In this document: one piece after another, positions 3,725-38,542 of the stretch
How positions within the stretch are numbered: the stretch's first letter is position 1
How the letters are laid out: every line of letters begins with the position of its first letter
Source: a virus
Lineage: Duplodnaviria > Heunggongvirae > Uroviricota > Caudoviricetes
Strand: one strand, 5' to 3'
Length of the DNA: 64,000 bases
Virus record (IMG/VR): IMGVR_UViG_3300045988_147489
Coordinates: 20,848-84,847 of that record
Translations under genes and position numbers: made by a program
The notes under the pieces: model-generated
What the model was told of the DNA's origin: nothing
The model's database searches: none
The model's input: the letters and a program-made list of their open reading frames with translations, nothing else

Positions 3725-4074
3725 TTTCCCGCGATGAATCCGGGACAAGGACCGTCTCAATAGATCTCGGATTCTATTTCAGTCGTGTAGTTGCTCACTA
3801 CGCCGTGTCGCCATTAGAGCTACTGAACGTTCCTCTCACGATGTTCTGGATGCTCAGTCGCAATATAGACCGTCTGCGTGCGGAAGAGGATGTCCGCAAC
3901 TTACAAGTCGCTCGTGCGTCCCAGGCGGATGGCGAGGCTGTGAAGGCGTTCATGGAGGGTTTGCAACTCAGGATTGGAAGACCAGTCGTAACAGATAAAG
4001 TCTACGATCCAAGCCAGGATAAGGCAGACCCTGACGCCAAAGAGCAACTGATGCAAATATTTGGCAGAGGATGA
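3688..4074 (+). CDS. gpT-like extension, probably expressed as a G-T fusion by -1 frameshift
   Basis: -1 frame relative to the G-like ORF is open from 3688 to the TGA at 4072-4074; A-rich GAAAAAG at 3695-3701 lies in the overlap. Confidence 0.5.
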   Translation, partial: RKRKSGWRRGKVISRDESGTRTVSIDLGFYFSRVVAHYAVSPLELLNVPLTMFWMLSRNIDRLRAEEDVRNLQVARASQADGEAVKAFMEGLQLRIGRPVVTDKVYDPSQDKADPDAKEQLMQIFGRG

Positions 4075-4081
4075 CAAGGGA

Positions 4082-7000
4082 ATGTCACAAAACGTAGAGT
4101 TTATCCTGTCGCTGGAAGACAAACAGTTTACAGCGTCAATCGATCGTGCGGGGAAACTGCTTACTCGATTTGGTGAGCAGGTAACAAAGCCTGCTCAAAA
4201 AATCCAAACCTTTGAACGCTCTTTGGGTTCGGTCGCCCGTATCATTGGCGTTCTGGAAAGCAAGCTCGATTCTACGGCAGATAAACTACAGGATGTAGCT
4301 GCCGGTTTTGAGCTTGCTTCAGATGCTACGCGTAAAATGCGTGGCAACATCACCAGCCTCAATTCTGGTCTTAAAGCCCTGATTGAGCGCGTCGATACGA
4401 CAACTTCTTCAGTAGATAAACTCACCGCGTCATTACGTAAAGTGCAATCAGAGCTAAATGATTTCTCTGATTGGGCGACCTATGCAAGCAAAAGCGCAAG
4501 CCGCTTTGGTACGGAGGTCAAAGAAGCCTCTGCGTCCGTGAGTGGCATGAATACGCGCCTTAATACCACGACGAAGCGACTCAGTAATTGGGGTGTCACA
4601 ACGAGTCAGGCTGCCGAGGGACTGAAAAAGGTTCGTGAGCAGATGGACGAAGTTATCGGACGTCAGCAACTGATTAGCAAGCCGGTACGCGTTCGTACAT
4701 CTGGAAGTGGCGATGGTGGCAGCGGGCGGCGTAGCGGCTCTGGCCATAGCGGTAAAAGTAACGAAGGAGGTATGTTCTCTGGCCTTCGTGGCAACATTTT
4801 CCTGCTTGGCGAGATCGGAGATGCAGCCAGAACGGTTACTGACATCATGTTTGGATGGCAGAAGCCTATTGTTGAAGCTGCGGCCGAAATGGAACGTATG
4901 CGGGTGATGCTTCGTGGGTTGAATAAGGAGAAGTCTAACCCTGGCCAGGCTGCCGCCGATGACATGAAGTACATCGTAGACATGGCTCAAAATGCGCCGT
5001 TCGCGATGCAGGCGTTAACAGACTCCTTCGTGAAGTTTCGTTCTGCTGGCTTAGATCCAACCGATGGTTCTCTGAAGGCGCTGGTGGACTCCGTTGCTCG
5101 TTTTGGTGGTGATAGTGAGCTGTTGAAACGTGCGGCTGTGGCCGTTCAGCAGATGTCCGGTAAGGGCGTCGTGTCAATGGAAGAGCTACGTCAGCAATTA
5201 GGTGAAGCCGTTCCTAACGCGATGCAGGCAATGGCAGACGCCGCAGGCATCACTATGGGGGAACTGACTAAAGCCGTTGCCAGCGGTACGGTTGAGGCAA
5301 AACAGGCGTTGTCTCTGATGTTTGTTGGTCTGCGTGCGGAGAATGAGAACGCAGCGAAAGACATGATGCAAACCTACACAGGTGCGCTGGCGCAACTTCA
5401 GACGTCATTCACGTTATTTGCTGATCGGGTTGGTCAGGCCGGATATCTGGATTCTCTATCGAAGGGGATGAAAGAACTGGCTTCAATCATGAATAGCGCC
5501 GAAGGGATTTCGTTTGCCAATTCTTTAGGTTCGGGGTTAACAACGGCAATCGATGGGTTGCGTCAGCTTGCTCAATGGTTAGCAAAGAACCAAGAGCTGG
5601 TAATTAATCTCGGTAAGGTCGTGGCCGCGATGGTTGCGTTCAAACTGATGCGAGCAGGGATCATGGGGGTAGTTGGCGCTGGGAGCCAGATGGTTAGCAC
5701 CTTTGCCACGATGGCGACCGCCATACAGACTCCATTTAACCTCGGCGCTACAGCAGTAACTCGATTCAATCGTGCGGCACGTATGGGGCTGGCTCCGATC
5801 CCCTCTCTTATTTTCGCCATCCGTGGGGCGATTACGGGGCTTAAAGGCGCTTTTGCTGGATTAACGGCGTTTATTGCAGCAAACCCTATAGGGGCAGCAT
5901 TTACAGTTGCCACTGTAGCTGTTGCTGGCCTAATCACGTACATGACCATGCTCCGCAGCGAAACTTCAAAGGTCGTTGACGAGATTAGGAAAATACCAGA
6001 AGCGATGACAGCGGCCAAACGTGCACAAATGGCCGACCGCGCAGAAAAGCTCGAAAATCAGATTCTTGCTGATCAACGAGCATTAAAAACTGGTGAGGGT
6101 GTTAATTACGTATCTAACTCTGCCGGTGTTATTACTCACAAAGAGTCGAAGGCTGACATCGAAGCACGCCTGAAAAAAAATCAGGAAGAGTATCAAAAGA
6201 TAACCGGCACGATAGCTCTTGGTGACGGCGCTGTAGCAAAGCGTTTGGCTAAAGAGGCTGCCGAATCTCAGATTGAGAAAATTCGAGCGGAAAACCAGAT
6301 TTTCGCGGCAACATTCGTGAAAGCCCGGCAGGAGGCTCTGGATAAGATCCAGAAAATCAATGATGACGGTTCACTTTCAGATGATGAAAAGAACAAGCTA
6401 TTGGCACCGTTACGTGAAACGGTAAACAAAAGCTATCTTGAGCCTGCGCAAAAACTGGTTGATTCACTTTCTTCTCGTAAGAATGCGACCGAGAAGCAAA
6501 TCGCGACTCTTAATGATCAGCTTGAAAAAGCCAAAAAGGATGGAAATACCGAGCAGATCCAGAAACTGCAAGGCAGTATTCGTGGTTATCAGGAGCATTT
6601 GGAAGCCGTTGCTCAGGAGCTGACTCAGGCAGAGTTCGAGAGAGATAACGCGGCCAAAACTGGTAAGGGCGTAATGTCAAACCAGGGGACTGTTCTTGGG
6701 TTAGGTACAACTGATAAAGCTGCTCAGAAGGCGCTGGCGCAATATATGCGAAACCAGATGGATTCTGCGACTTATCAACGTACTTTGCCTGACGGCACTC
6801 CGATGATGGACTTCGAAGGTAAGCCGATTATTGGGCCTAAACAACTCAAGACGCAGCTTAATTTGCAGAAAGCATCCAGTGCCAGCTCTCTGGAGAAAAT
6901 GAGCGATGAAGAGCGTGCCGCAGCCATTGCTGCACTGACTAAAGCTCGTGAACAGGATGCAGCAGCCGCCGAGAAAGCAGCCCAACGATCAGCTAACGCC

Positions 7001-20100: not shown

Positions 20101-23100
20101 AAAACGGGTTATCGACAGCTCAAAACAACATTGCCAAGAAGGCTGATGCTTCTGCATTGCAGGATCTCCGGAACACGGTGACATCTCAGGGTGATGATTT
20201 AACCGCGGCGAACAGCAGCATTACCAGCCTGCATGCCTCGATGAACCGTCGCACTGTGTTTACTGTCACTGCACGGGGTAATGGCAACAGCGTTACCCAT
20301 GGGGTGTTTGATGAAAGCGGCAAGAATCTGTTTACCCCTGGTCGCAGCTGGGCGCTGGTCACTTTTGCAAAACACAGCGACGGATCAACGGTGATTGCGA
20401 CCTCCAAAACATACGATGTCTTTGGCAGCGCGAATAATGGCGCCACGATGTCGGCTGATATCGAGGCACTGGCCAGTGGGACTTACGTTTGCGTCCTGAC
20501 ATTCGATGAGCCAACTGGCAACCGAGGTAAGGTGTTGTCTGCCCTGGAATCTCTTGGTGGCACTTCCGAAGTCGTTAACTCTCTGCCGTATCGTGGCGCC
20601 TACATTCTCCTTGGCCGCAAAGGTATGAAGCCGGGCGATGGTCTGGAACTGCGTGCGCCAACCGGTGGCGACGGCACCGCCCACATTTCGACCTCAGTCG
20701 AGTTTGTGAACGGGGTAATGATGGGGCTGGGCGCCGCTGGTGGTGTGATGATGAAGGCTGATGCGAACGCATCTGCAATTACCACGCTCCAGAATACAGT
20801 GAAGACCCAAGGGGATAATATTGACTCCCTGAGCTCCTCGACAACAGCGCTGGAAAACAGCCTTGCGTCCAGTAACGCCAGCGTGGATGCAGCAAGCCAG
20901 ATCCCCGGTAACCTGATCGTAAACCCGTCTTTTGAGCGTGGTACGGAGGGCTACACTGGTTGGAGCGGTATTGCCACGGTGGCAACGCTGCAGGTTCCAC
21001 ATCTTGGCACCAAAGCCGCCAAACTAGCGGCGGGTGGTTCTGCAGGCGTGGGCCAGAAGATCTCCTTCAAAAAGGATCGGTCGTACAAAATTGGTATTTG
21101 GGCAAAGCAGGACCCTAATACCACCATTCAGTCGACCGACAACACAAAATTCCGTGTGGCTGACGGTACTGGCCTGATTGCAAGTAAGGTTTATGGTCCG
21201 TTCACCTCGAACTGGCAGGAGGTGTCATGGACATGGAAGGCGACAAAGGATGTCCTTGCTGACGTTCAGTTCACTGCTTTCTTGTCAGCCGGCGCGATGT
21301 ACTTTGATGATTTTTACGTCGTCGATGTGACCGACTCAGTTGAAACTCAGGCGAACTCGAGTGCGATCACGAAGCTCGATAGTCGTGTGACCAAGACAGA
21401 GAATGACATCACCAGCCAGGGCAGCCAGGTTACGCAACTTAAGAATGACCTTGCTACCACAAACACAAATGTTTCGAAGAAAGCGGATGCAGCTGCGTTA
21501 ACGGCATTAACGAACCGCGTCACGCAGAATGAGAAAGAAATTGGAACCCAGAGCAGCCAGACAACTTCGCTCAAAAACTCTTTGAGCACTGTTCAGGCAA
21601 TGGGAAGCAACCCGTGGTTTGATGGTTCTCTGGAGACGTACTCCGAAAACCAGCAGATCAGCGGCTCGCGCGCGGTCGTCGTCAGCTCTCAGAAACGAAG
21701 CGGAACGAAGTCGTTGCGTGTTTCCCGCGGCGCCGGTGAGGGCGGAAACAGCGATAAAACCATCGGTAAGTGGATTGCTCTGCGTGAAAATGCGGTATTC
21801 CGCATTGAACTCTGGGCGATGATGCCGGCAGATCAGTCGCCATCATCCGGGTGGTCAACGCTCGTTGGTTTGCAGACCCAAAACGCTGCCAACAACAATA
21901 ACTGGCCGACGGCAATCACTATCAATGAAGCCGCATTGGGTGCAAGAGGCGCATGGAAGAAATTCACCGGTACGCTCCGTGTAGCCGCTGGCCACACTCG
22001 CGGCGCATTTTGGGTATCTACCCGCGGCACAACTGGCACTGGTACACCGGGGTATGATCTGTATATCGATGACGTTGTTGTCACCGATATCACCGACGCA
22101 AAAGAGGCTCAAGATTCGGCTAATTCGAACGCATCCGCGCTCACCAGCCTTACCTCACGTGTTACCAATGTAGAAGGGCAGGTGACATCCCAGGCGTCTC
22201 AGCTGTCCTCTTTGACGTCCCAGGTGAATGATGCGTCTTCGAAGGTTGATCAGATGGCGCAAACCATCACCAACAACGAGAAAACGCAGTCGTCGCTGAA
22301 TACCAGCTTGCAGTCGCAAATTGATGCGCAGGCATCGGCAAACATCAAGAACCAGACGGAGTTGAATAACGCCACCACTTCGATGGCGGCAATTAAATCA
22401 ACTCAGCAGACTCAGGCCACAACGATTAGTGCACTGTCTCAGCAGCAAACGAATTTAACGGCCCAGGTAGGAGGCCAGTCAGCCGAGCTGCAGGAGCTGA
22501 AGAAAACGGTTGTTGAAAACGGCAACGTTAACAGCACCTGGATGGTCAAAATGGAAACCAACAGCAACGGTAAAAAGTATGCTGCTGGTATAGCTTTAGG
22601 TATCGATGGCAAAAATTTGCAGAGCCAGTTTCTGGTTCAGACTGATCGCTTCGGCTTAATCAACACCTCTAACGGGAATACGACTACACCTTTCGTTATC
22701 GAAAATGGCGTTGCGTATATTAATGCCGCTGTCATTAAAGATGGCTCGATCACCAATGCGAAAATTGGAGGCGAAATCCGTTCTGACAATTTCGTTAATG
22801 GTTCAAATGGCTGGAGAATTGGAAAAGACGGTAGTTCACAGTTCAACAATGCGATATTCAGAGGTCATATTGAAGCGCGCAGTGGTACGTTCAAAGGAAC
22901 CCTGGAAGCTCAAAACTTTATTGGTGATATCGCTGTAGCTCGGCGTTATGCGGGTTTATCGTTCCGTCGTAACAACACCGTACAGCGTGATGGTCGTTAC
23001 CAGAACCGCGGATACGGTATGACTATTGTGCTAAGTTGCACCCTGATATATCAGGTTACTGGGGGGAATGAGGATCGTAACGGTTATATTGTTGAAATGA

Positions 23101-26589: not shown

Positions 26590-27009
26590 ATGCTAAATTA
26601 TCATGACAATACGCGTTCTATGCAGACGATCCGCACCAATACTGCGGTTATCGACAGCTTTCCTATGCGTATTCACAACAGTGAAGACGCAGTAGAAGTG
26701 CGACGTATGTTGTGCCGTGAATCAGCTAACCGCCAGCACTTCATCGTCACTTTTAAGAGCGATGTGGCGCGTGCCGAAAAGATCTCTAATTCTACGTCAC
26801 TGGTTAAACCGTTGGCCGAGGTTGTCACTAACGGTAAACGAACCTCTTTTGTTTTAGATGTTGCTGAACAATATCCTGACTTGAAGTGTTTAGATCGTGA
26901 TATTTCTTCACGAATCAAACAAGTTGTAGAGTCTTTTATGAAGAAATTCTGTAAAATCGATGATATGGAACCATCAACGGCACAGAATACTTCATGGCAC
27001 CATCTCTAA
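26590..27009 (+). CDS. hypothetical protein
   Basis: ORF from track; no motif recognised. Confidence 0.4.
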   Translation: MLNYHDNTRSMQTIRTNTAVIDSFPMRIHNSEDAVEVRRMLCRESANRQHFIVTFKSDVARAEKISNSTSLVKPLAEVVTNGKRTSFVLDVAEQYPDLKCLDRDISSRIKQVVESFMKKFCKIDDMEPSTAQNTSWHHL

Positions 27010-27767
27010 TTGGTCAGGCGAACAGATTAATCCCTGAAATAGAAGACTACAGCAAGGTCTTGTCTGAAATGCCGAGAGCGACGAGAATTATCGCTCTCGG
27101 TGAGTTCTATTTTATCTCCCGAGGTTTCGATCTAATTCGATTTACCGAATACGAGCTTGTTGATTCGGCCTATGAACGCTGTATTGTTGGCGAGTGTCTT
27201 GAGTCATGTGATCCTGATTACCAAGAGCAGGAAGTTAAGCGACTCAAACGTGCTGGTTACACACCTCTTGAGATAGGAGCAGAAATTGAATCCTACAAGT
27301 TGCATGTGGGGCAGCCAGTCCAAACAGTCTTCCGCGTGGCCTACTGCGAGTTTCCAATCAAGGATAAATCTGGAGTAAAAGTCAGCGCCAAGCAGATTAG
27401 AGGGGTTTTTACTCATGCTGATTATATGGGATTAGGCATCGCAAGTTTTGCTTACCTTTATCTCGTAGATAAGTATCAGTACTTGGTTTGCGATACGTTA
27501 CAGACGGTAAAAGGCGCAACTCTTTGGGCTGTGAGTATGCGCAAACATGGACTGGTCGAAATTTACGATACGAAGAACGAAAATTTTATAGAGGAATTGG
27601 GTGAGGATGCCTGTGGCGTAAGTGGTTTTATTCCGTGGGATATCGGTAAGTCTGACGGAGGCCAGATGCGAAGACGTGAAGAGTGGGGGACTAATAAAAT
27701 CAATCTCACCCCAGGTGCTTGTACTCATATAGTGAACATTCTGAGTAAACGATCTATGAATCAATAA
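26994..27767 (+). CDS. hypothetical protein
   Basis: ORF from track; followed by clear terminator. Confidence 0.45.
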   Translation: MAPSLIGQANRLIPEIEDYSKVLSEMPRATRIIALGEFYFISRGFDLIRFTEYELVDSAYERCIVGECLESCDPDYQEQEVKRLKRAGYTPLEIGAEIESYKLHVGQPVQTVFRVAYCEFPIKDKSGVKVSAKQIRGVFTHADYMGLGIASFAYLYLVDKYQYLVCDTLQTVKGATLWAVSMRKHGLVEIYDTKNENFIEELGEDACGVSGFIPWDIGKSDGGQMRRREEWGTNKINLTPGACTHIVNILSKRSMNQ

Positions 27768-27790
27768 ACCCGCTACGGCGGGTTTTTTGT
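27768..27790 (+). terminator. rho-independent terminator
   Basis: ACCCGC-TACG-GCGGGT followed by TTTTTTGTT. Confidence 0.7.
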
Positions 27791-27915
27791 TATTAAGCCC
27801 ACCTATGTACCTATCATTAAACCTTTACACCGCAGCCGTAGGCATTTAGGCTATATCACATATAAGAAAACAAGTTGTTTCAGACGATAATTATATACGC
27901 AAAGGGAACTCTCCA

Positions 27916-28584
27916 ATGACCAAGATCTTTGTGGTTGGCGGCACAAAGGGCGGGCCTGGCAAATCCACCGTTGCCCAGCAAATTGCCGTTTGCCTGAAAG
28001 TCAAAAAGAAGAAGAAGGTTTATATTACCGATATAGATATTCAGCGCACGACAACGAGCTGGTGTGAAGACCGTCGACAGAACGAAGACCTTGAGCTGAT
28101 TCCTTTTGCATACGTTCAGGATGACATCATTAAGCACCTAAAATCGCTTCAGGGTAGAGCTGAGTTTGTAGTGGTAGATGCTGGTGGCTTCGACTCCGAA
28201 ATTCAGCGACAAGCGATGCTGATGGCTGACGTTATCATTATCCCGCTGCGTCCTAAGCGTCGTGATTTGAAATCTTTACGTGACATCGATCCTATTATCG
28301 ACAATGTTCGCAATGTAAACGATAAAGTGAAGGTCCGCGCGGTCATGAACCAGTGCCCGGCTTTGCCATCACAAGTGTCTCGCATTCTGGCGGCTAAAGA
28401 GATTGTTGAGACGTTTGGCATCGAGTCTGCGCCAGTCAATCTATATAACCGCAACGTCTATGATGATGCGGAAGAGTCTGGTCGCTCTATCTTTGAAATG
28501 ACCGGTAGCGAGCGCGACAAAAAGGCGGAAGCCGAGTTTGAAGAATTTGTAGATTATCTGTTGAGTCTGGAGGAAGAAGAATAA
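27916..28584 (+). CDS. parA: ParA-family partition ATPase
   Basis: N-terminal deviant Walker A GGTKGGPGKST; size and following small partner gene typical of type I partition loci. Confidence 0.8.
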   Translation: MTKIFVVGGTKGGPGKSTVAQQIAVCLKVKKKKKVYITDIDIQRTTTSWCEDRRQNEDLELIPFAYVQDDIIKHLKSLQGRAEFVVVDAGGFDSEIQRQAMLMADVIIIPLRPKRRDLKSLRDIDPIIDNVRNVNDKVKVRAVMNQCPALPSQVSRILAAKEIVETFGIESAPVNLYNRNVYDDAEESGRSIFEMTGSERDKKAEAEFEEFVDYLLSLEEEE

Positions 28585-33433: not shown

Positions 33434-33508
33434 CAATCACCTTTAAAATAAGTAGATGATTACTTATCTTTCTGTGAGAATACTTTCATCTGTTAGCTAG
33501 GAGTTGGT

Positions 33509-34291
33509 ATGAAAGACGAAATTCAGAAATTAGCCTGCGACATCATTGATAAAACTGGTTTAGAAATCAGCGAGAGCAATCGGCTAGACATCATTGAAAA
33601 AGCCGTAAAAACAGCAATGGATCATATCGCCACTCGTTTGGTCGAGATCCCGCTACCGGGGCTACCTTATCTGAAGGTTAAGTTACACGTATGGGGTGAA
33701 CCTTCTTGTGCACGGCGTTCTGCATTAGTTGTTTTTATTAGCAAAGAAAACCCGATCAGTCTTAAAGTGCAGGTTGGGGCATGGATGGATGGCAAAGTGA
33801 TCTACACAAATACCGTTTTTTGTGCGTCAAATGACAGTATTATTGAAGAGGCTATTCAAGAATCACTTCTAACTATGCATAGCTTATTTTTGCTGGAAGA
33901 CAAGCAAAACTACGAAGAGTACTTACGGTCGATAAAAGGTGAGAGAACATTGTCACTTAAAGCCGATTTCGTTACCCCGACAAACCTGTTGGAAGTCTTG
34001 CTTAATAAAGGGGCTAATGATGCCGTAAATGTAATCAGAGAGAGTGAGTATGCGTCTCTTTGCGACATGTGCAAAAGCCAGTTGGATCTGGTGCATATCG
34101 TTATTGATGCTGGGAAGGCATGTGATGGCGTAATGGCGGAGTTTGCTGGGAAGATGGTCAGGATTGCTAACGAATTACCGATGATAGAGCAAGAGGCTAA
34201 ATCATACGCCACCAATCATGTCACAGAGCTTCTTGTCCCCTATCGCTTAGAAAGCGATCAGCGCAAGATGATTAGCTGGGGAAGTTGGTAA
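33509..34291 (+). CDS. hypothetical protein
   Basis: ORF from track. Confidence 0.45.
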   Translation: MKDEIQKLACDIIDKTGLEISESNRLDIIEKAVKTAMDHIATRLVEIPLPGLPYLKVKLHVWGEPSCARRSALVVFISKENPISLKVQVGAWMDGKVIYTNTVFCASNDSIIEEAIQESLLTMHSLFLLEDKQNYEEYLRSIKGERTLSLKADFVTPTNLLEVLLNKGANDAVNVIRESEYASLCDMCKSQLDLVHIVIDAGKACDGVMAEFAGKMVRIANELPMIEQEAKSYATNHVTELLVPYRLESDQRKMISWGSW

Positions 34292-34346
34292 TCTCTCCGC
34301 GCGTCGTTTTTTACGCAAATAACGATAGGTAAGTACAAGATTATTT

Positions 34347-34829
34347 ATGGCGGTAGTTGTGAAAGCTGATTTGTCAAAAATCCCCTCTATTTCAGGAAAT
34401 AATGGTTATTCACTTCGTTGTGAGGAAGTAAAGATAAACGGTGAGTCGGCATATTGCAGCTACTCCGTTTGCCAGCACACCATTCTTGCCTTCAAAGAAA
34501 ACCGTCTTCCTCGAACTTCATTCCAGTCGTGCGCAACCGCTATCAAAGCAGGCAAATGCAAGGCGTTAAAAATGATGGTTGAAGAGATTCGTAAAGGAGA
34601 ATCTCTGTATTTCGAAGATATGACCGCGCTCATTAAGGAGGTTGAAGAACGGAATAAACAAGCCAGAACTTTAAAACGAAAACGTGACAGTGTAACGATT
34701 AATAGCATGGTTAAGAAGAGCGCCACATCACAAACAGCGATCACTGACGTGTATGCGGCGTTGCTTGAAGAAACAACAAAAGAAACACATGAGCAAATCG
34801 ATCAACATATGGAGGCAAAACAACAATGA
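34347..34829 (+). CDS. hypothetical Cys-containing protein
   Basis: ORF from track; stop overlaps ligase start. Confidence 0.4.
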   Translation: MAVVVKADLSKIPSISGNNGYSLRCEEVKINGESAYCSYSVCQHTILAFKENRLPRTSFQSCATAIKAGKCKALKMMVEEIRKGESLYFEDMTALIKEVEERNKQARTLKRKRDSVTINSMVKKSATSQTAITDVYAALLEETTKETHEQIDQHMEAKQQ

Positions 34830-36148
34830 AAAAGTTGATCGCACTTAAGCATAAGCTGGACGAAATGAAAGCTATGGGAACCAATGCAAAAAAAGAGGCA
34901 TTGGCCAACATGGATGACTTTGAACAAAGCATGGTTTCATTGATGCTCAACCCTTTCATCCGTTTTGGGGTAAAGAAATACAAAGTGGCAAAGCCGCTTA
35001 GTGAGTCCGTCCCAAGTGACGAAAAAGCCATTGATGTACTGAATAAGCTGGCCTCTCGCGAGCTGACGGGGAACGCAGCAATAGCAGCTGTTGAGTCTAT
35101 CGTGGCGTCAATGTGCGCCGATGGGCAGGACGTGTTCCGTCGTTTCCTCTTAAAAGACCCGAAAGCAGGTGTTGGGATTAGCCTATGCAACAAGGTTTTT
35201 GAAAATCCCATTCCGAAATTCGAGGTGCAGCTGGCGTCACCGTATAAAGAAAAAGGCGACAAATACCCCTTCAAGCCAAATCCTAAAGCAAAATGGCCGA
35301 TGATTGGCAGTCTTAAGCTCGATGGTTTGCTAGTAATTTGCGAGGTTATTGTTGACGAGGAAGAGGTTAACTTCCTTTCTCGTACTGGTAATCCAATCAC
35401 GTCTCTCGATCACCTAAAGCCAGCAATGCTCGAATTAGGCAAACTTTCAGGCCACAAACACATCTTCTTCGATGGTGAAGGAACAGCCGGTTCATTTAAC
35501 CAGTCCGTATCTGCATTGCGCAAAAAGAACGTGCAGGCAATTGGCGCTATTTATCATGTTTTCGACTTCTTCCTACCGGAATGGCGAGCACAGGCTAAAT
35601 CCAAAGAGTATGCAAAGACAGGTATGAAGCTGAAAGAGCGCCTGGCTATTCTCGTGGCGTTGTTCAAAAACGATCGCAGTGAAGGCTACACACAAGACAT
35701 TCACCTGCATCCGTTCTATATCATCCATAGCCACGAAGACCTCATCGAACGCTTCATGAAACGCCTGGACGATAACGAAGAAGGGGAGATGGGTAAAGAT
35801 CCGAACTCTGTTTACGAGTTTAAACGCACCCGCAGCTGGTGGAAGTTAAAAGACGAAGATTCAGAAGATGGTGAAATTATCGATTTTGAGCCGGGCGATC
35901 CGGACTCTGGTTTTGCCAACACGCTTGGAAAAATTGTTATTCGTCTTGAAAACGGCGTCATCGTGCGTGCGAGCGGCATTAAGCATAAATATCTGGACGA
36001 GATCTGGAACAACAAAGAGAAGTACCGTGGTCGTATTGTTGAGGTTCATTGTCACGAGAAAACACCGGATGGCAGCTTACGCCACCCACGACTGAAATGG
36101 CCGCGTTGCTTACGCGATACAGAAGATCGAATCGGAGATAAAGAATGA
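34826..36148 (+). CDS. ATP-dependent DNA ligase
   Basis: adenylation motif MIGSLKLDGLLV (KxDG); further nucleotidyltransferase-like motifs (FDGEGT, WWKLK). Confidence 0.75.
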   Translation: MKKLIALKHKLDEMKAMGTNAKKEALANMDDFEQSMVSLMLNPFIRFGVKKYKVAKPLSESVPSDEKAIDVLNKLASRELTGNAAIAAVESIVASMCADGQDVFRRFLLKDPKAGVGISLCNKVFENPIPKFEVQLASPYKEKGDKYPFKPNPKAKWPMIGSLKLDGLLVICEVIVDEEEVNFLSRTGNPITSLDHLKPAMLELGKLSGHKHIFFDGEGTAGSFNQSVSALRKKNVQAIGAIYHVFDFFLPEWRAQAKSKEYAKTGMKLKERLAILVALFKNDRSEGYTQDIHLHPFYIIHSHEDLIERFMKRLDDNEEGEMGKDPNSVYEFKRTRSWWKLKDEDSEDGEIIDFEPGDPDSGFANTLGKIVIRLENGVIVRASGIKHKYLDEIWNNKEKYRGRIVEVHCHEKTPDGSLRHPRLKWPRCLRDTEDRIGDKE

Positions 36149-36324
36149 TGCTCGGCTGGATGATTGCATTTTTAGCAGTTGGTTTTTTCATCGGTATTGT
36201 GGTGATGTCCAGTTGCATTAATGACTACATTAAAAACGGTGTTATAGAAAGACGCGGTCGTATTTATCGCATTGTAGAAATAACCAACACCCTGAAGGAG
36301 ATTAAGGATGATCGTATTAAGTAA
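36145..36324 (+). CDS. small membrane protein (59 aa), paralogue 1
   Basis: not in ORF track (under 60 aa); ATG overlaps ligase stop; translation MMLGWMIAFLAVGFFIGIVVMSSCINDYIKNGVIERRGRIYRIVEITNTLKEIKDDRIK. Confidence 0.4.
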   Translation: MMLGWMIAFLAVGFFIGIVVMSSCINDYIKNGVIERRGRIYRIVEITNTLKEIKDDRIK

Positions 36325-36523
36325 ACGGGAGAAGGAAACGCTTCATGAAATCAGTAAGTGGCCGGAGTTCCCTGAGTACTGGAAGCCTAAAACGCGAGCT
36401 AAGTTAGAGCGTTTAGGGTTGGTTGCAAACGTTTCTGAAACGAAGTGTTCGGCCAACTACCAGTTAACTGATAAAGGGAAAGTATTGCTACAGCAATTAG
36501 TAGAATCAGGAGTGTTAAAATGA
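36308..36523 (+). CDS. hypothetical small protein
   Basis: 71-aa ORF, start overlaps previous gene. Confidence 0.35.
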   Translation: MIVLSKREKETLHEISKWPEFPEYWKPKTRAKLERLGLVANVSETKCSANYQLTDKGKVLLQQLVESGVLK

Positions 36524-36672
36524 TTCCATACATCTCATTAGCTTTTATGGGTGGCTTCCTTATCGGCTTCGGCATCTGTCGTGATTTAATTAAGCAGGAA
36601 CTTAAAACCAAAACACTGTGCATCGGAAAGCGTGTGTATCGGGTAGTTCATGAAACAAAGGTTAAAAAATGA
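36520..36672 (+). CDS. small membrane protein (50 aa), paralogue 2
   Basis: not in ORF track; translation MIPYISLAFMGGFLIGFGICRDLIKQELKTKTLCIGKRVYRVVHETKVKK; same TM plus G(K/R)R.YR.V pattern as paralogue 1. Confidence 0.4.
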   Translation: MIPYISLAFMGGFLIGFGICRDLIKQELKTKTLCIGKRVYRVVHETKVKK

Positions 36673-36959
36673 GCAATTTAACTTCTTGGGACTGGTGGTT
36701 GGCCACCTATTTCTTAGCGGCCGGAGTCGCATTCGCCTTTTACGTAGGTCAGTTAGTCGTAAAACTGTTGCTGATTAAATTTGCTAGTCATAAACGTATC
36801 GATGATGGTCTGTGGCGTCTTGGCACCCTGGTGGAAACTCGCTACGGGCAACTTAAGGAGAACGAAACCATTACTATCCAGGCGAAACGATTCACTGCCA
36901 CCATCACAAGAACACCTAGTCGTAGAGTGGCCTTGATCAAAAAAGTCACAACCGAATAA
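36669..36959 (+). CDS. small membrane protein (96 aa), paralogue 3
   Basis: N-terminal TM helix then basic region; start overlaps previous stop (ATGA). Confidence 0.4.
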   Translation: MSNLTSWDWWLATYFLAAGVAFAFYVGQLVVKLLLIKFASHKRIDDGLWRLGTLVETRYGQLKENETITIQAKRFTATITRTPSRRVALIKKVTTE

Positions 36960-37195
36960 AAACATCATGATAAGTATTTACTTACTTATCTTTTATGTAT
37001 AAGATGACTTTGTTTTCGTTGAGACGCGACTGTTTGAACTTAAATACAAGTGCAAACGAAGAAGTCTATCTGGCAGTAGCCTAATAAGCCAAACACCAGC
37101 GAGGTCAGTTTCCAGCCTCGTTACCGAAATGGGACACACTGAGCGAGTGTGATTGCAGAACGCAGGAGGGAACATTCATGTTCCCTCCGATGAAG

Positions 37196-37273
37196 TAACA
37201 GAATGGGCGGTTGGTATATTTTCAACTCCATATGACTCCCGGATTCTTAGCCTCTGACCGCCCATCCTGTTAC
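37196..37273. repeat. long-range inverted repeat A (about 17-bp arms, 2 mismatches)
   Basis: TAACAGAATGGGCGGTT ... GACCGCCCATCCTGTTA. Confidence 0.5.
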
Positions 37274-37347
37274 GTCATTTTGTTCAATTATGTCGTTTAT
37301 ACTGGGTTAAAAAGCGGCGACGTAGCCCGGCTGGTATGGTTAGCCAG

Positions 37348-37471
37348 CACACAACGTTGAGGCCATTACATTTTTATCAATTCTAAGGTTCTATTCACAG
37401 AGATACCGGCGAGCGTTGATATGTAACATGTTGGGCAAACATTCAATCGGAGTAGTGGCCTCAACGTTGTG
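37348..37471. repeat. long-range inverted repeat B (16-bp perfect arms, 92-nt spacer)
   Basis: CACAACGTTGAGGCCA ... TGGCCTCAACGTTGTG. Confidence 0.6.
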
Positions 37472-37737
37472 AAGACAGGATTGTTGTGTAGGTTTAACCA
37501 CTGTTGCCATTGGTGCCTGTTTTCACAACAAATGATTCCATACATCACATTGTATAAATTACAAAGTAGGTGCTGTCCTCAGAAACATCATCTACTTAAA
37601 GATTTTGCCTTCTACTATTGAGCGAAGTCGAAAGCGTCTGGCACTAACGAAAAGTGCAAGTAGCGGTGCGTTTCCTGGCAGAAACTAAACCGTCGCGATT
37701 GGCACTGTTGAGTAATAAATACTGGCAGTGCTGAATT

Positions 37738-37812
37738 GATGGTGTAGCTCAGCGGTAGAGCAGTTGGCTGTTAACCAACTGGTCGGTGGTTCGAATCCAC
37801 CCACCATCGCCA
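37738..37812 (+). tRNA. tRNA-Asn (anticodon GTT)
   Basis: cloverleaf folded by hand: 7-bp acceptor GATGGTG/CACCATC, anticodon loop CTGTTAA, T-loop GGTTCGAATCC, CCA end. Confidence 0.8.
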
Positions 37813-37817
37813 ATTTA

Positions 37818-37904
37818 GGGGAGTTAGTCCGTAGAGGTAGCGGTGTAGACTGTAAATCTACTGTCATGGCGACTCGGGTGGTTCGACTCCATCACTCCCC
37901 ACCA
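37818..37904 (+). tRNA. tRNA-Tyr (anticodon GTA), long variable arm
   Basis: acceptor GGGGAGT/ACTCCCC, anticodon stem-loop GTAGA-CTGTAAA-TCTAC, T-loop GGTTCGACTCC, CCA end. Confidence 0.75.
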
Positions 37905-37908
37905 AATT

Positions 37909-37984
37909 GCCGGTTTAGCTCAGTTGGTAGAGCGCCTGCCTTGTAAGCAGGATGTCAGCGGTTCGAGTCCGTTAACCGGCACCA
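37909..37984 (+). tRNA. tRNA-Thr (anticodon TGT)
   Basis: acceptor GCCGGTT/AACCGGC, D-arm GCTCAGTTGGTAGAGC, anticodon loop CTTGTAA, T-loop, CCA end. Confidence 0.8.
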
Positions 37985-37992
37985 ACATAATA

Positions 37993-38073
37993 TTGAGAAC
38001 ATTGGCGTAACGGGTTCATATCCCAATTTATGAATATAATGTTGCGTTGCAGCGTGACAACCAGTGTTCTCAA
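37993..38073. repeat. long-range inverted repeat C immediately 3' of tRNA-Thr
   Basis: TTGAGAACATTGG ... CCAGTGTTCTCAA (1 mismatch). Confidence 0.5.
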
Positions 38074-38278
38074 CATTGTGGTGAATGCACAGGCTGATGT
38101 GCGACGTAGAAGCAAGCGGATGAACTGCCTGAAGGCCGCTAACGTAGGCAATGCCGGAGATCAGCACCGGCCATCACAATTTGGCTCTCTTGCAACAGCA
38201 TAACGCTGAAATACGTCCAACCTGGTGCGGTCTGATCACCCGCCGTTAGCTCCACGAAACGGAGCACACAACACAATT

Positions 38279-38365
38279 GGAGAGTAGGGAGCATGGTGCT
38301 CAAGCGGTCTTGAAAACCGTCCCATTGTGCAAACGATGATGGTTCGATTCCATTACTCTCCGCCA
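38279..38365 (+). tRNA. tRNA-Ser (anticodon TGA), long variable arm
   Basis: acceptor GGAGAGT/ACTCTCC, anticodon stem-loop GCGGT-CTTGAAA-ACCGT, T-loop GGTTCGATTCC, CCA end. Confidence 0.65.
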
Positions 38366-38499: not shown

Positions 38500-38542
38500 C
38501 TTTTTTCAGCGCAAAATTCAAAGGGGCTTCGGCCCCTTTTTT
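38500..38542 (+). terminator. terminator-like element; also copy 1 of a direct repeat flanking the lipoprotein gene
   Basis: TTTTCAGCGCAAAATTCAAAGGGGCTTCGGCCCCTTTTTT. Confidence 0.55.

Follow-up and report, generated by a model that had tools for sequence, protein, structure and literature searches.

Small single-pass membrane proteins encoded behind the DNA ligase gene of an SSU5-like phage-plasmid

What are the very small membrane-protein genes that follow the DNA ligase gene of a tailed phage, and at what stage of the phage life cycle would they act? We addressed this question in a 64,000-nucleotide stretch of the IMG/VR virus record IMGVR_UViG_3300045988_147489 (positions 20,848 to 84,847 of that record; Caudoviricetes), hereafter the window, in whose coordinates all positions are given unless stated otherwise. 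A first-pass annotation of this DNA had pointed out three tandem genes for small membrane proteins, had taken them for a paralogous family, and had suggested toxins, holin-like proteins, or superinfection-exclusion factors as their likely nature. Our results indicate that the genes are genuine and constrained (one of them having been missed by some annotations), that two of them are paralogous, that a soluble protein gene lies among them, and that the three look like accessory lytic-cycle proteins, not a holin or a lysogeny toxin.

The three open reading frames are present on the + strand as the annotation had claimed, at 36145 to 36324 (g1, 59 amino acids), 36520 to 36672 (g3, 50 amino acids), and 36669 to 36959 (g4, 96 amino acids). 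They are not contiguous, however, since a fourth + strand gene that the annotation did not mention, g2 (36308 to 36523), encodes a soluble 71-amino-acid protein between g1 and g3. The g1-g4 region shares 99.2% identity with the Escherichia phage Cyrano (the same element as pLF82 of Escherichia coli LF82) and 79% with the Salmonella phage SSU5, and the window is therefore part of an SSU5-like phage-plasmid. The same stretch is held by 752 plasmid records from Escherichia, Klebsiella, Enterobacter, Salmonella, Citrobacter, and Yersinia pestis (pMT1). All four genes are annotated in SSU5 (SSU5_045-048) and only g2-g4 in Cyrano (CYRAN_37-39). The Cyrano g1 is intact yet unannotated (locus L001, 6346 to 6525), as is g3 in the Klebsiella plasmid NZ_CP016161.

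Substitution rates argue that these are functional genes. In comparisons of the window with SSU5, an Enterobacter plasmid, pMT1, and two Klebsiella plasmids, g1, g3, and g4 have a nonsynonymous divergence (dN) of 0.08 to 0.30 at a synonymous divergence (dS) that ranges from 0.8 to saturated, giving dN/dS ratios of 0.07 to 0.24 (0.08 to 0.24 for g1, 0.08 to 0.19 for g3, and 0.07 to 0.10 for g4). For g2, dN is 0.18 to 0.32, and dS is saturated or incalculable except in one pair, for which dN/dS is 0.084. These ratios indicate that all four open reading frames are under strong purifying selection, beyond what chance would produce. Lengths and motifs are kept across genera, and the conservation among relatives that the first-pass annotation had named as a check extends to hundreds of SSU5-like phage-plasmids, pMT1 included. 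Judged by this conservation, g1, g3, and g4 are real small proteins of the SSU5-like phage-plasmid.

Family searches say little about what these proteins do. Full-length matches to PHROG families were obtained for all four (PHROG 4381 for g1, 4054 for g2, 6302 for g3, and 4507 for g4; expectation values [E] of 1e-36 to 1e-59), and all four families are listed as "unknown function." Searches of Pfam, NCBIfam, and PADLOC with g1-g4 gave no significant match, and profile searches of all PDB sequences gave no match below E 0.2. The best that could be recovered was a set of weak matches of g2 to families of the winged helix-turn-helix type (PF14947, E 0.067; EarA, E 0.056; the C terminus of PADLOC Csa3, E 0.001), and g2 is possibly a winged-helix protein; its annotation in Cyrano is putative transcriptional regulator. 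Many g4 records carry the name "C-type natriuretic protein" without Pfam support, and this name appears to be a propagated misannotation. A literature search for the genes, their accession numbers, or "C-type natriuretic protein" found nothing. Because no known family is matched, the function of g1-g4 can only be inferred, and g1, g3, and g4, which are already catalogued as hypothetical families, are best filed as uncharacterized small phage single-pass membrane proteins.

The predicted architecture is the first source of such inference. The Kyte-Doolittle maxima over 19 residues are 2.55 for g1, 1.84 for g3, and 2.00 for g4, against 0.21 for g2, which has no hydrophobic segment. The C-terminal parts of g1, g3, and g4 carry net charges of +3, +7, and +7, respectively, while the N-terminal sides have no net positive charge. 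Hydropathy and charge thus bear out the earlier description of an N-terminal hydrophobic helix followed by a basic segment in each of the three proteins. By the positive-inside rule, which is established knowledge, this charge distribution predicts N-out/C-in anchors with cytoplasmic tails, and the topology prediction that had been proposed as a check returned one helix with this orientation for each. All three helices contain small-xxx-small motifs. In g1, the helix spans approximately residues 3 to 23 and includes G13xxxG17 (G13 invariant, G17 at least 90% conserved); in g3, it spans approximately residues 2 to 20 and includes G12xxxG16 (both glycines at least 90% conserved); and in g4, it spans approximately residues 9 to 36 and includes G19xxxA23xxxG27, all three positions being invariant.

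The tails are no less constrained. The decapeptide GKRVYRVVHE of g3 is invariant except for V42, which is I in 1 of 15 aligned sequences, and g4 has a conserved tail (FASHKRIDDGLWRLG...). Mean column identity is higher in the tail than in the helix for g3 (0.83 versus 0.67) and g4 (0.90 versus 0.76) and nearly equal in the two parts of g1 (0.82 versus 0.81). Such conservation of the tails, at least equal to that of the helices, suggests that they form a particular interface in the cytoplasm and speaks against nonspecific damage to the membrane. AlphaFold2 models are of low confidence: g4 was modeled (predicted local distance difference test score [pLDDT] of 66) with a long helix at residues 6 to 61 and a possible hairpin at residues 67 to 80, and g1, modeled from a merged g1 and g3 alignment (pLDDT 72), is essentially one long helix.

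The relationship among the three membrane proteins proved to be narrower than first supposed. The first-pass annotation had reported a shared G(K/R)R-x-YR-x-V pattern; it is present literally in g3 (GKRVYRVV), and only its core is present in g1 (RGRIYRIV), while g4 lacks the motif. Across the six-frame translation of the window, the literal pattern occurs once, in g3, and there are just two instances of the core R[IVL]YR[IVL]V, against 0.03 expected, in g1 (RIYRIV, encoded at 36259 to 36276) and g3 (RVYRVV, encoded at 36631 to 36648). The two proteins align with each other by BLASTP (E 5e-5) and by profile-profile comparison with hhalign (85% probability, E 6e-6, 49 ungapped columns), and a distant g3 orthologue likewise matches g1 (E 2e-5 to 8e-5). 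A merged alignment of 29 g1 and g3 sequences has no internal gap and places the GxxxG and R[IV]YR[IV]V motifs in register, with R39, Y41, and R42 invariant and G13, G17, and T47 nearly so. When the columns of g3 were shuffled within helix and tail separately, the observed score was reached in 0 of 300 shuffles, and a shuffle of the tail only reached it in 1 of 300. In a scan of all open reading frames of at least 25 amino acids in the six frames of the window, the g1 and g3 hidden Markov models (HMMs) were each other's best non-self matches (E 1e-3 and 4e-3; next match, >0.28). Taken at the level of sequence, g1 and g3 are demonstrably paralogues. Comparison of g4 with g1 and g3 yielded no BLASTP alignment, an hhalign probability of 0.6%, and an HMM E value of 5.9, which is noise, and by these measures g4 shares only a general architecture with the other two. 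Of the small paralogous family that had been proposed, the g1/g3 pair thus stands and the membership of g4 does not.

The genomic position of the block provides the second source of inference. Immediately upstream on the + strand lies a gene for a 440-amino-acid ATP-dependent DNA ligase (34826 to 36148; Pfam PF01068, E 4.8e-11; annotated as DNA ligase in Cyrano and SSU5), and g1-g4 are translationally coupled to this gene in the replication module. ATGA overlaps join the ligase gene to g1, g2 to g3 (4 nt), and g3 to g4; g1 and g2 overlap by 17 nt; and a GGAG or AGGAG-like sequence precedes each of the four starts. A scan of the + strand from 33500 to 38000 turned up no sigma-70-like promoter. 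As for terminator-like sites on this strand, g1-g4 contain a single one, a weak 5-bp stem inside g4 (36694 to 36707), and the first strong one is at 38520. Helicase, primase, and ligase genes precede the block, and a transfer RNA (tRNA) array and then a polymerase gene follow it.

The history of the block is one of conservation with frequent rearrangement. Homologues of g1, g3, and g4 were found only in SSU5-like elements of Enterobacterales. When the g4 profile was run exhaustively with HMMER against 1.84 billion representatives, it returned 18 matches, all of them from the same family or chimeras, and no distant relatives in an informative context. The most distant gene-carrying relatives, whose ligase is 74% identical, have the ligase gene, a 56-amino-acid g3 orthologue, and a g4 orthologue and lack g1 and g2. 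This order makes it probable that ligase-g3-g4 is the ancestral core, with g1 having probably arisen as a copy of g3 and entered along with g2. Of 80 IMG/VR loci retrieved by way of the ligase, the full ligase-g1-g2-g3-g4 order is present in 52; g1 is absent from 13; 4 have ligase-g3-g4 only; 2 have g2 split or duplicated; and 2 have neither g3 nor g4. Neither of these two genes is present in the most distant relative. In another 7 of the 80, the tail of g3 and all of g4 are swapped for an unrelated tail-anchored 138-amino-acid protein (PHROG 34759). Family searches with the proteins of such replacement cassettes likewise recovered only PHROGs without a function.

The loss of g1 has a simple structural basis. 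A 16-nt imperfect direct repeat on the + strand covers the Shine-Dalgarno sequence and start of g1 (GGAGATAAAGAATGAT, 36134 to 36149) and again those of g2 (GGAGATTAAGGATGAT, 36297 to 36312). An alignment of the window with a g1-less E. coli plasmid shows the g1-less form to be a deletion of exactly 163 bp between the repeats, with the junction inside the repeat. The deletion precisely removes g1 in many plasmids of E. coli, Escherichia albertii, and Shigella (locus L003, 1501 to 1600); 138 Escherichia plasmid records carry g1 DNA versus 218 for g3, and approximately a third of E. coli elements lack g1. Several chimeras were also observed. In one, the g3 helix is carried on an unrelated tail and followed by the PHROG 34759 protein; in another, the N-terminal half of g4 is joined to a Phage_gp49_66 C terminus (PF13876, E 1e-21); and in a third, the ligase N terminus is joined to the g4 C terminus, which amounts to a deletion of ligase through g3. 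The loci L082, L084, and L085 (approximately 3909 to 4762) and the proteins P0100, P0113, and P0118 belong to these recombinant variants of the block. Repeat-mediated deletion, replacements, and fusions show the block to be accessory and prone to recombination, conserved though it is.

Published expression data bear on the stage at which these genes would act. In RNA sequencing of the LF82 lysogen of Cyrano, the normalized counts from overnight cultures in LB medium are 5.9 for the ligase gene, 6.4 for g2, 5.0 for g3 (equal to 0 fragments per kilobase per million reads), and 7.6 for g4 (PMC9928086, S1 Table). For comparison, terminase and capsid genes have counts of about 7, the repressor 96, and CYRAN_43 7084, and the authors' list of Cyrano genes expressed in lysogeny excludes g2-g4 (PMC9928086). 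The genes g2-g4 are thus silent in the Cyrano lysogen, at the level of the repressed structural genes. The Cyrano genes for holin, endolysin, Rz, and Rz1 lie at 26739 to 28157 of that phage (approximately 25.4 to 26.9 kb in the window), about 10 kb upstream of g1-g4.

Three specific identities were considered and set aside. A holin is disfavored by the position of the genes outside the lysis cassette and by the lack of holin family membership. A type I or plasmid addiction toxin is disfavored by the lack of a promoter-like site, by the coupled starts, and by counts equal to those of repressed structural genes. Exclusion proteins expressed from the prophage, of the SieA, SieB, gp15, or Cor type, are disfavored by silence in lysogeny and by the lack of any match in PADLOC, Pfam, or NCBIfam.

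We propose, with a probability of roughly 35%, that g1, g3, and g4 are inner-membrane anchors of the lytic cycle that tether or sequester a cytoplasmic partner, components of replication or ligation being favored. The proteins would be made during lytic growth and would insert as N-out/C-in anchors into the inner membrane, where the small-xxx-small motifs might drive helix packing, either into homo-oligomers or into a g3-g4 hetero-oligomer. The predicted cytoplasmic tails, marked by R[IV]YR[IV]V in g1 and g3 and by KRIDDxLWxL with a hairpin in g4, would then bind the partner at the membrane. The favored candidates for this partner are a replication protein and phage DNA undergoing replication or ligation; the alternative is a host protein associated with the membrane. 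The function would be accessory rather than essential, because g1 is lost via the repeat and the g3 tail and g4 are replaced in 7 of the 80 loci. A more specific version, in which a hetero-oligomer of g3 and g4, g1 being a spare copy, tethers the ligase or replisome or the replicating DNA to the inner membrane during lytic growth, is a long shot.

Several considerations weigh against this proposal. No homology points to any partner or activity of g1, g3, or g4, and the AlphaFold models, as low-confidence single helices (pLDDT 66 and 72), give no support to a folded tail domain. The N-out/C-in topology is based on the positive-inside rule only, and lytic expression is deduced from genomic position and silence in lysogeny, with g1, which is unannotated in Cyrano, missing from the published expression table. 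Finally, the variable makeup of the block is no less expected of genes for host interaction or exclusion than of genes with a role in replication.

This last point leads to the alternative that survives best, namely, superinfection exclusion in the lytic phase. T4 Imm and Sp are small envelope proteins encoded among the early genes and dispensable in the laboratory, and the sp (61.3) and imm genes likewise lie among genes for replication and nucleotide metabolism. By analogy, g1, g3, and g4 could be early inner-membrane proteins that stop DNA delivery by later phages. Small single-pass membrane proteins among early and replication genes would fit this role, as would a block that is variable and partly dispensable, which is typical of genes for host interaction or competition. 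However, the proteins have no homology to Imm or Sp and no similarity to any exclusion or defense family, they are silent in lysogeny, the state in which a temperate element stands to gain most from exclusion, and their conserved part is the predicted cytoplasmic tail, not the periplasmic face. We consider such a role possible but unlikely.

Somewhat less probable is that the proteins modulate a host inner-membrane protein, for example, one that acts in cell division, transport, proteolysis, or as a sensor kinase, much as the small bacterial membrane proteins AcrZ, MgrB, and SidA do. The conserved helix-packing motifs and single-pass architecture would suit such modulators, and restriction to elements of Enterobacterales would fit a host-specific target. 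Nothing points to a target, however, and conservation is strongest in the tail, not in the helix.

The earlier suggestion of membrane-damaging toxins or of holin- or antiholin-like lysis-timing proteins fares slightly worse again and strikes us as doubtful. There is a real resemblance to holins and pinholins (lambda S, S21) and to type I toxins (Hok, TisB) in that all are small hydrophobic proteins with small-residue, glycine-zipper-like motifs in the helix and charged C termini, and the g4 helix, though not its tail, gives a marginal match to a PHROG holin family (phrog_2359, E 0.019). However, the phage that is 99% identical has a canonical holin-endolysin-Rz-Rz1 cassette some 10 kb upstream, with g1-g4 lying outside it, and no holin or toxin family is matched significantly. 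Type I toxins have an independent promoter and an antisense RNA partner, while g1-g4 have neither and are operon-coupled; g2-g4 are silent while the element persists as a plasmid or prophage and therefore would not form an addiction module. A tail more conserved than the helix is also not what membrane damage would predict. As for spurious or decaying reading frames without function, the shortness of g1, g3, and g4 and the failure to annotate g1 in Cyrano and g3 in one Klebsiella record would suit them, but this explanation is highly improbable because dN/dS of 0.07 to 0.24 at saturated dS contradicts it, as do the lengths and motifs kept across genera and the presence of Shine-Dalgarno sequences and start/stop coupling.

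To return to the proposed lytic-cycle anchors, one precedent is p16.7 of the Bacillus phage phi29, a membrane anchor of replicating phage DNA. The likeness is one of architecture and context only: an N-terminal anchor with a predicted cytoplasmic part, encoded with early or replication genes. There is no sequence or structural relation between p16.7 and g1, g3, or g4, whose tails have only 30 to 60 residues and no recognizable DNA-binding domain and whose host is Gram negative. If the tether were real, it would be a Gram-negative functional analogue of p16.7 made of proteins of 50 to 96 residues, with R[IV]YR[IV]V as a new binding motif. Clinical E. coli, Klebsiella, Salmonella, and Y. pestis (pMT1) often carry SSU5-like phage-plasmids, and most of the small genes of these elements are unstudied. 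Placing g1-g4 in the lytic replication block, and not in lysis or lysogenic conversion, narrows the experiments that are worth doing. The general picture is unchanged: phage early regions often encode small single-pass membrane proteins whose role is unknown.

A separate observation concerns the DNA downstream of g4, and it is probably more interesting than the membrane proteins themselves. The "intergenic" DNA from 36971 to approximately 37355 is far better conserved than the flanking genes. It corresponds to the core of a structured RNA that starts 12 nt after g4 and has extensions to approximately 37530. On 21 diverse sequences, the predicted structure comprises 79 pairs in 11 helices, including a pseudoknot, with 98.5% of cells paired. 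Covariation was assessed by helix-level counts, an all-against-all column scan having been discarded because it was swamped by phylogenetic signal; 21 pairs were changed on both sides, versus 1 to 5 in slid controls, and 0 of 500 shuffles reached the observed value. The occurrence of this RNA is independent of g3 and g4. A promoter-like TTTACT-17-TAAGAT is found at 36977 to 37005, its spacing being kept and its -10 hexamer varying between clades.

Forty nucleotides into the predicted transcript is a short frame without a start codon (37052 to 37087; GCA AAC GAA GAA GTC TAT CTG GCA GTA GCC TAA TAA) that resembles the tag frame of a transfer-messenger RNA (tmRNA) and encodes ANEEVYLAVA. Relatives carry nine variants of this tag, all fitting AN[DE]xx[YF]LAVA, and all four synonymous third bases occur in its last alanine codon. 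ARAGORN called no tmRNA here, and Rfam 15 gave only sub-threshold matches of the tmRNA type (14 to 29 bits). An alanine-type tRNA-like domain was not found in this window. One Felixounavirus genome, in contrast, has a 79-nt tRNA-like element (with G3.U70, A73, and CCA) downstream of the region that holds the tag and pseudoknot.

Related copies of the RNA are present in approximately 45-kb Klebsiella siphoviruses, in Felixounavirus, in Kuttervirus and Vi01-like phages, and in Erwinia and Cronobacter phages, and the RNA pattern matches 782 GenBank phage records. Among the matches listed (25 records), there is no RNA annotation beneath the match, where either nothing or a hypothetical protein is annotated. 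Each copy examined has tRNA genes nearby, except that of Vi01, in whose 3-kb locus no tRNA was detected. In a 2014 survey of tmRNA genes, mycobacteriophages and Bacillus phage G are the only phages listed with one (PMC4131195), and a Kuttervirus genome report states "0 tmRNAs" (PMC10112204). From its structure, tag frame, and distribution, the RNA looks like an unrecognized and widespread family of phage tmRNA-like RNAs.

Beyond the core, at approximately 37355 to 37470, there is a variable insert between the arms of a perfect 16-bp inverted repeat (CACAACGTTGAGGCCA ... TGGCCTCAACGTTGTG), in place of which distant relatives have a 69-amino-acid open reading frame. An 11-bp hairpin ending in TTTTCAC follows at 37470 to 37527. 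The inverted repeat and the hairpin may extend the RNA at its 3' end or terminate it. Farther downstream, the tRNA array at 37738 to 38365 comprises Asn(gtt), Tyr(gta), Thr(tgt), and Ser(tga); Cyrano is annotated with the Asn, Thr, and Ser tRNAs only, and the window therefore has an extra tRNA-Tyr. The array is followed at 38520 to 38539 by a strong terminator-like hairpin (AAAGGGGCTTCGGCCCCTTT) with a T-run.

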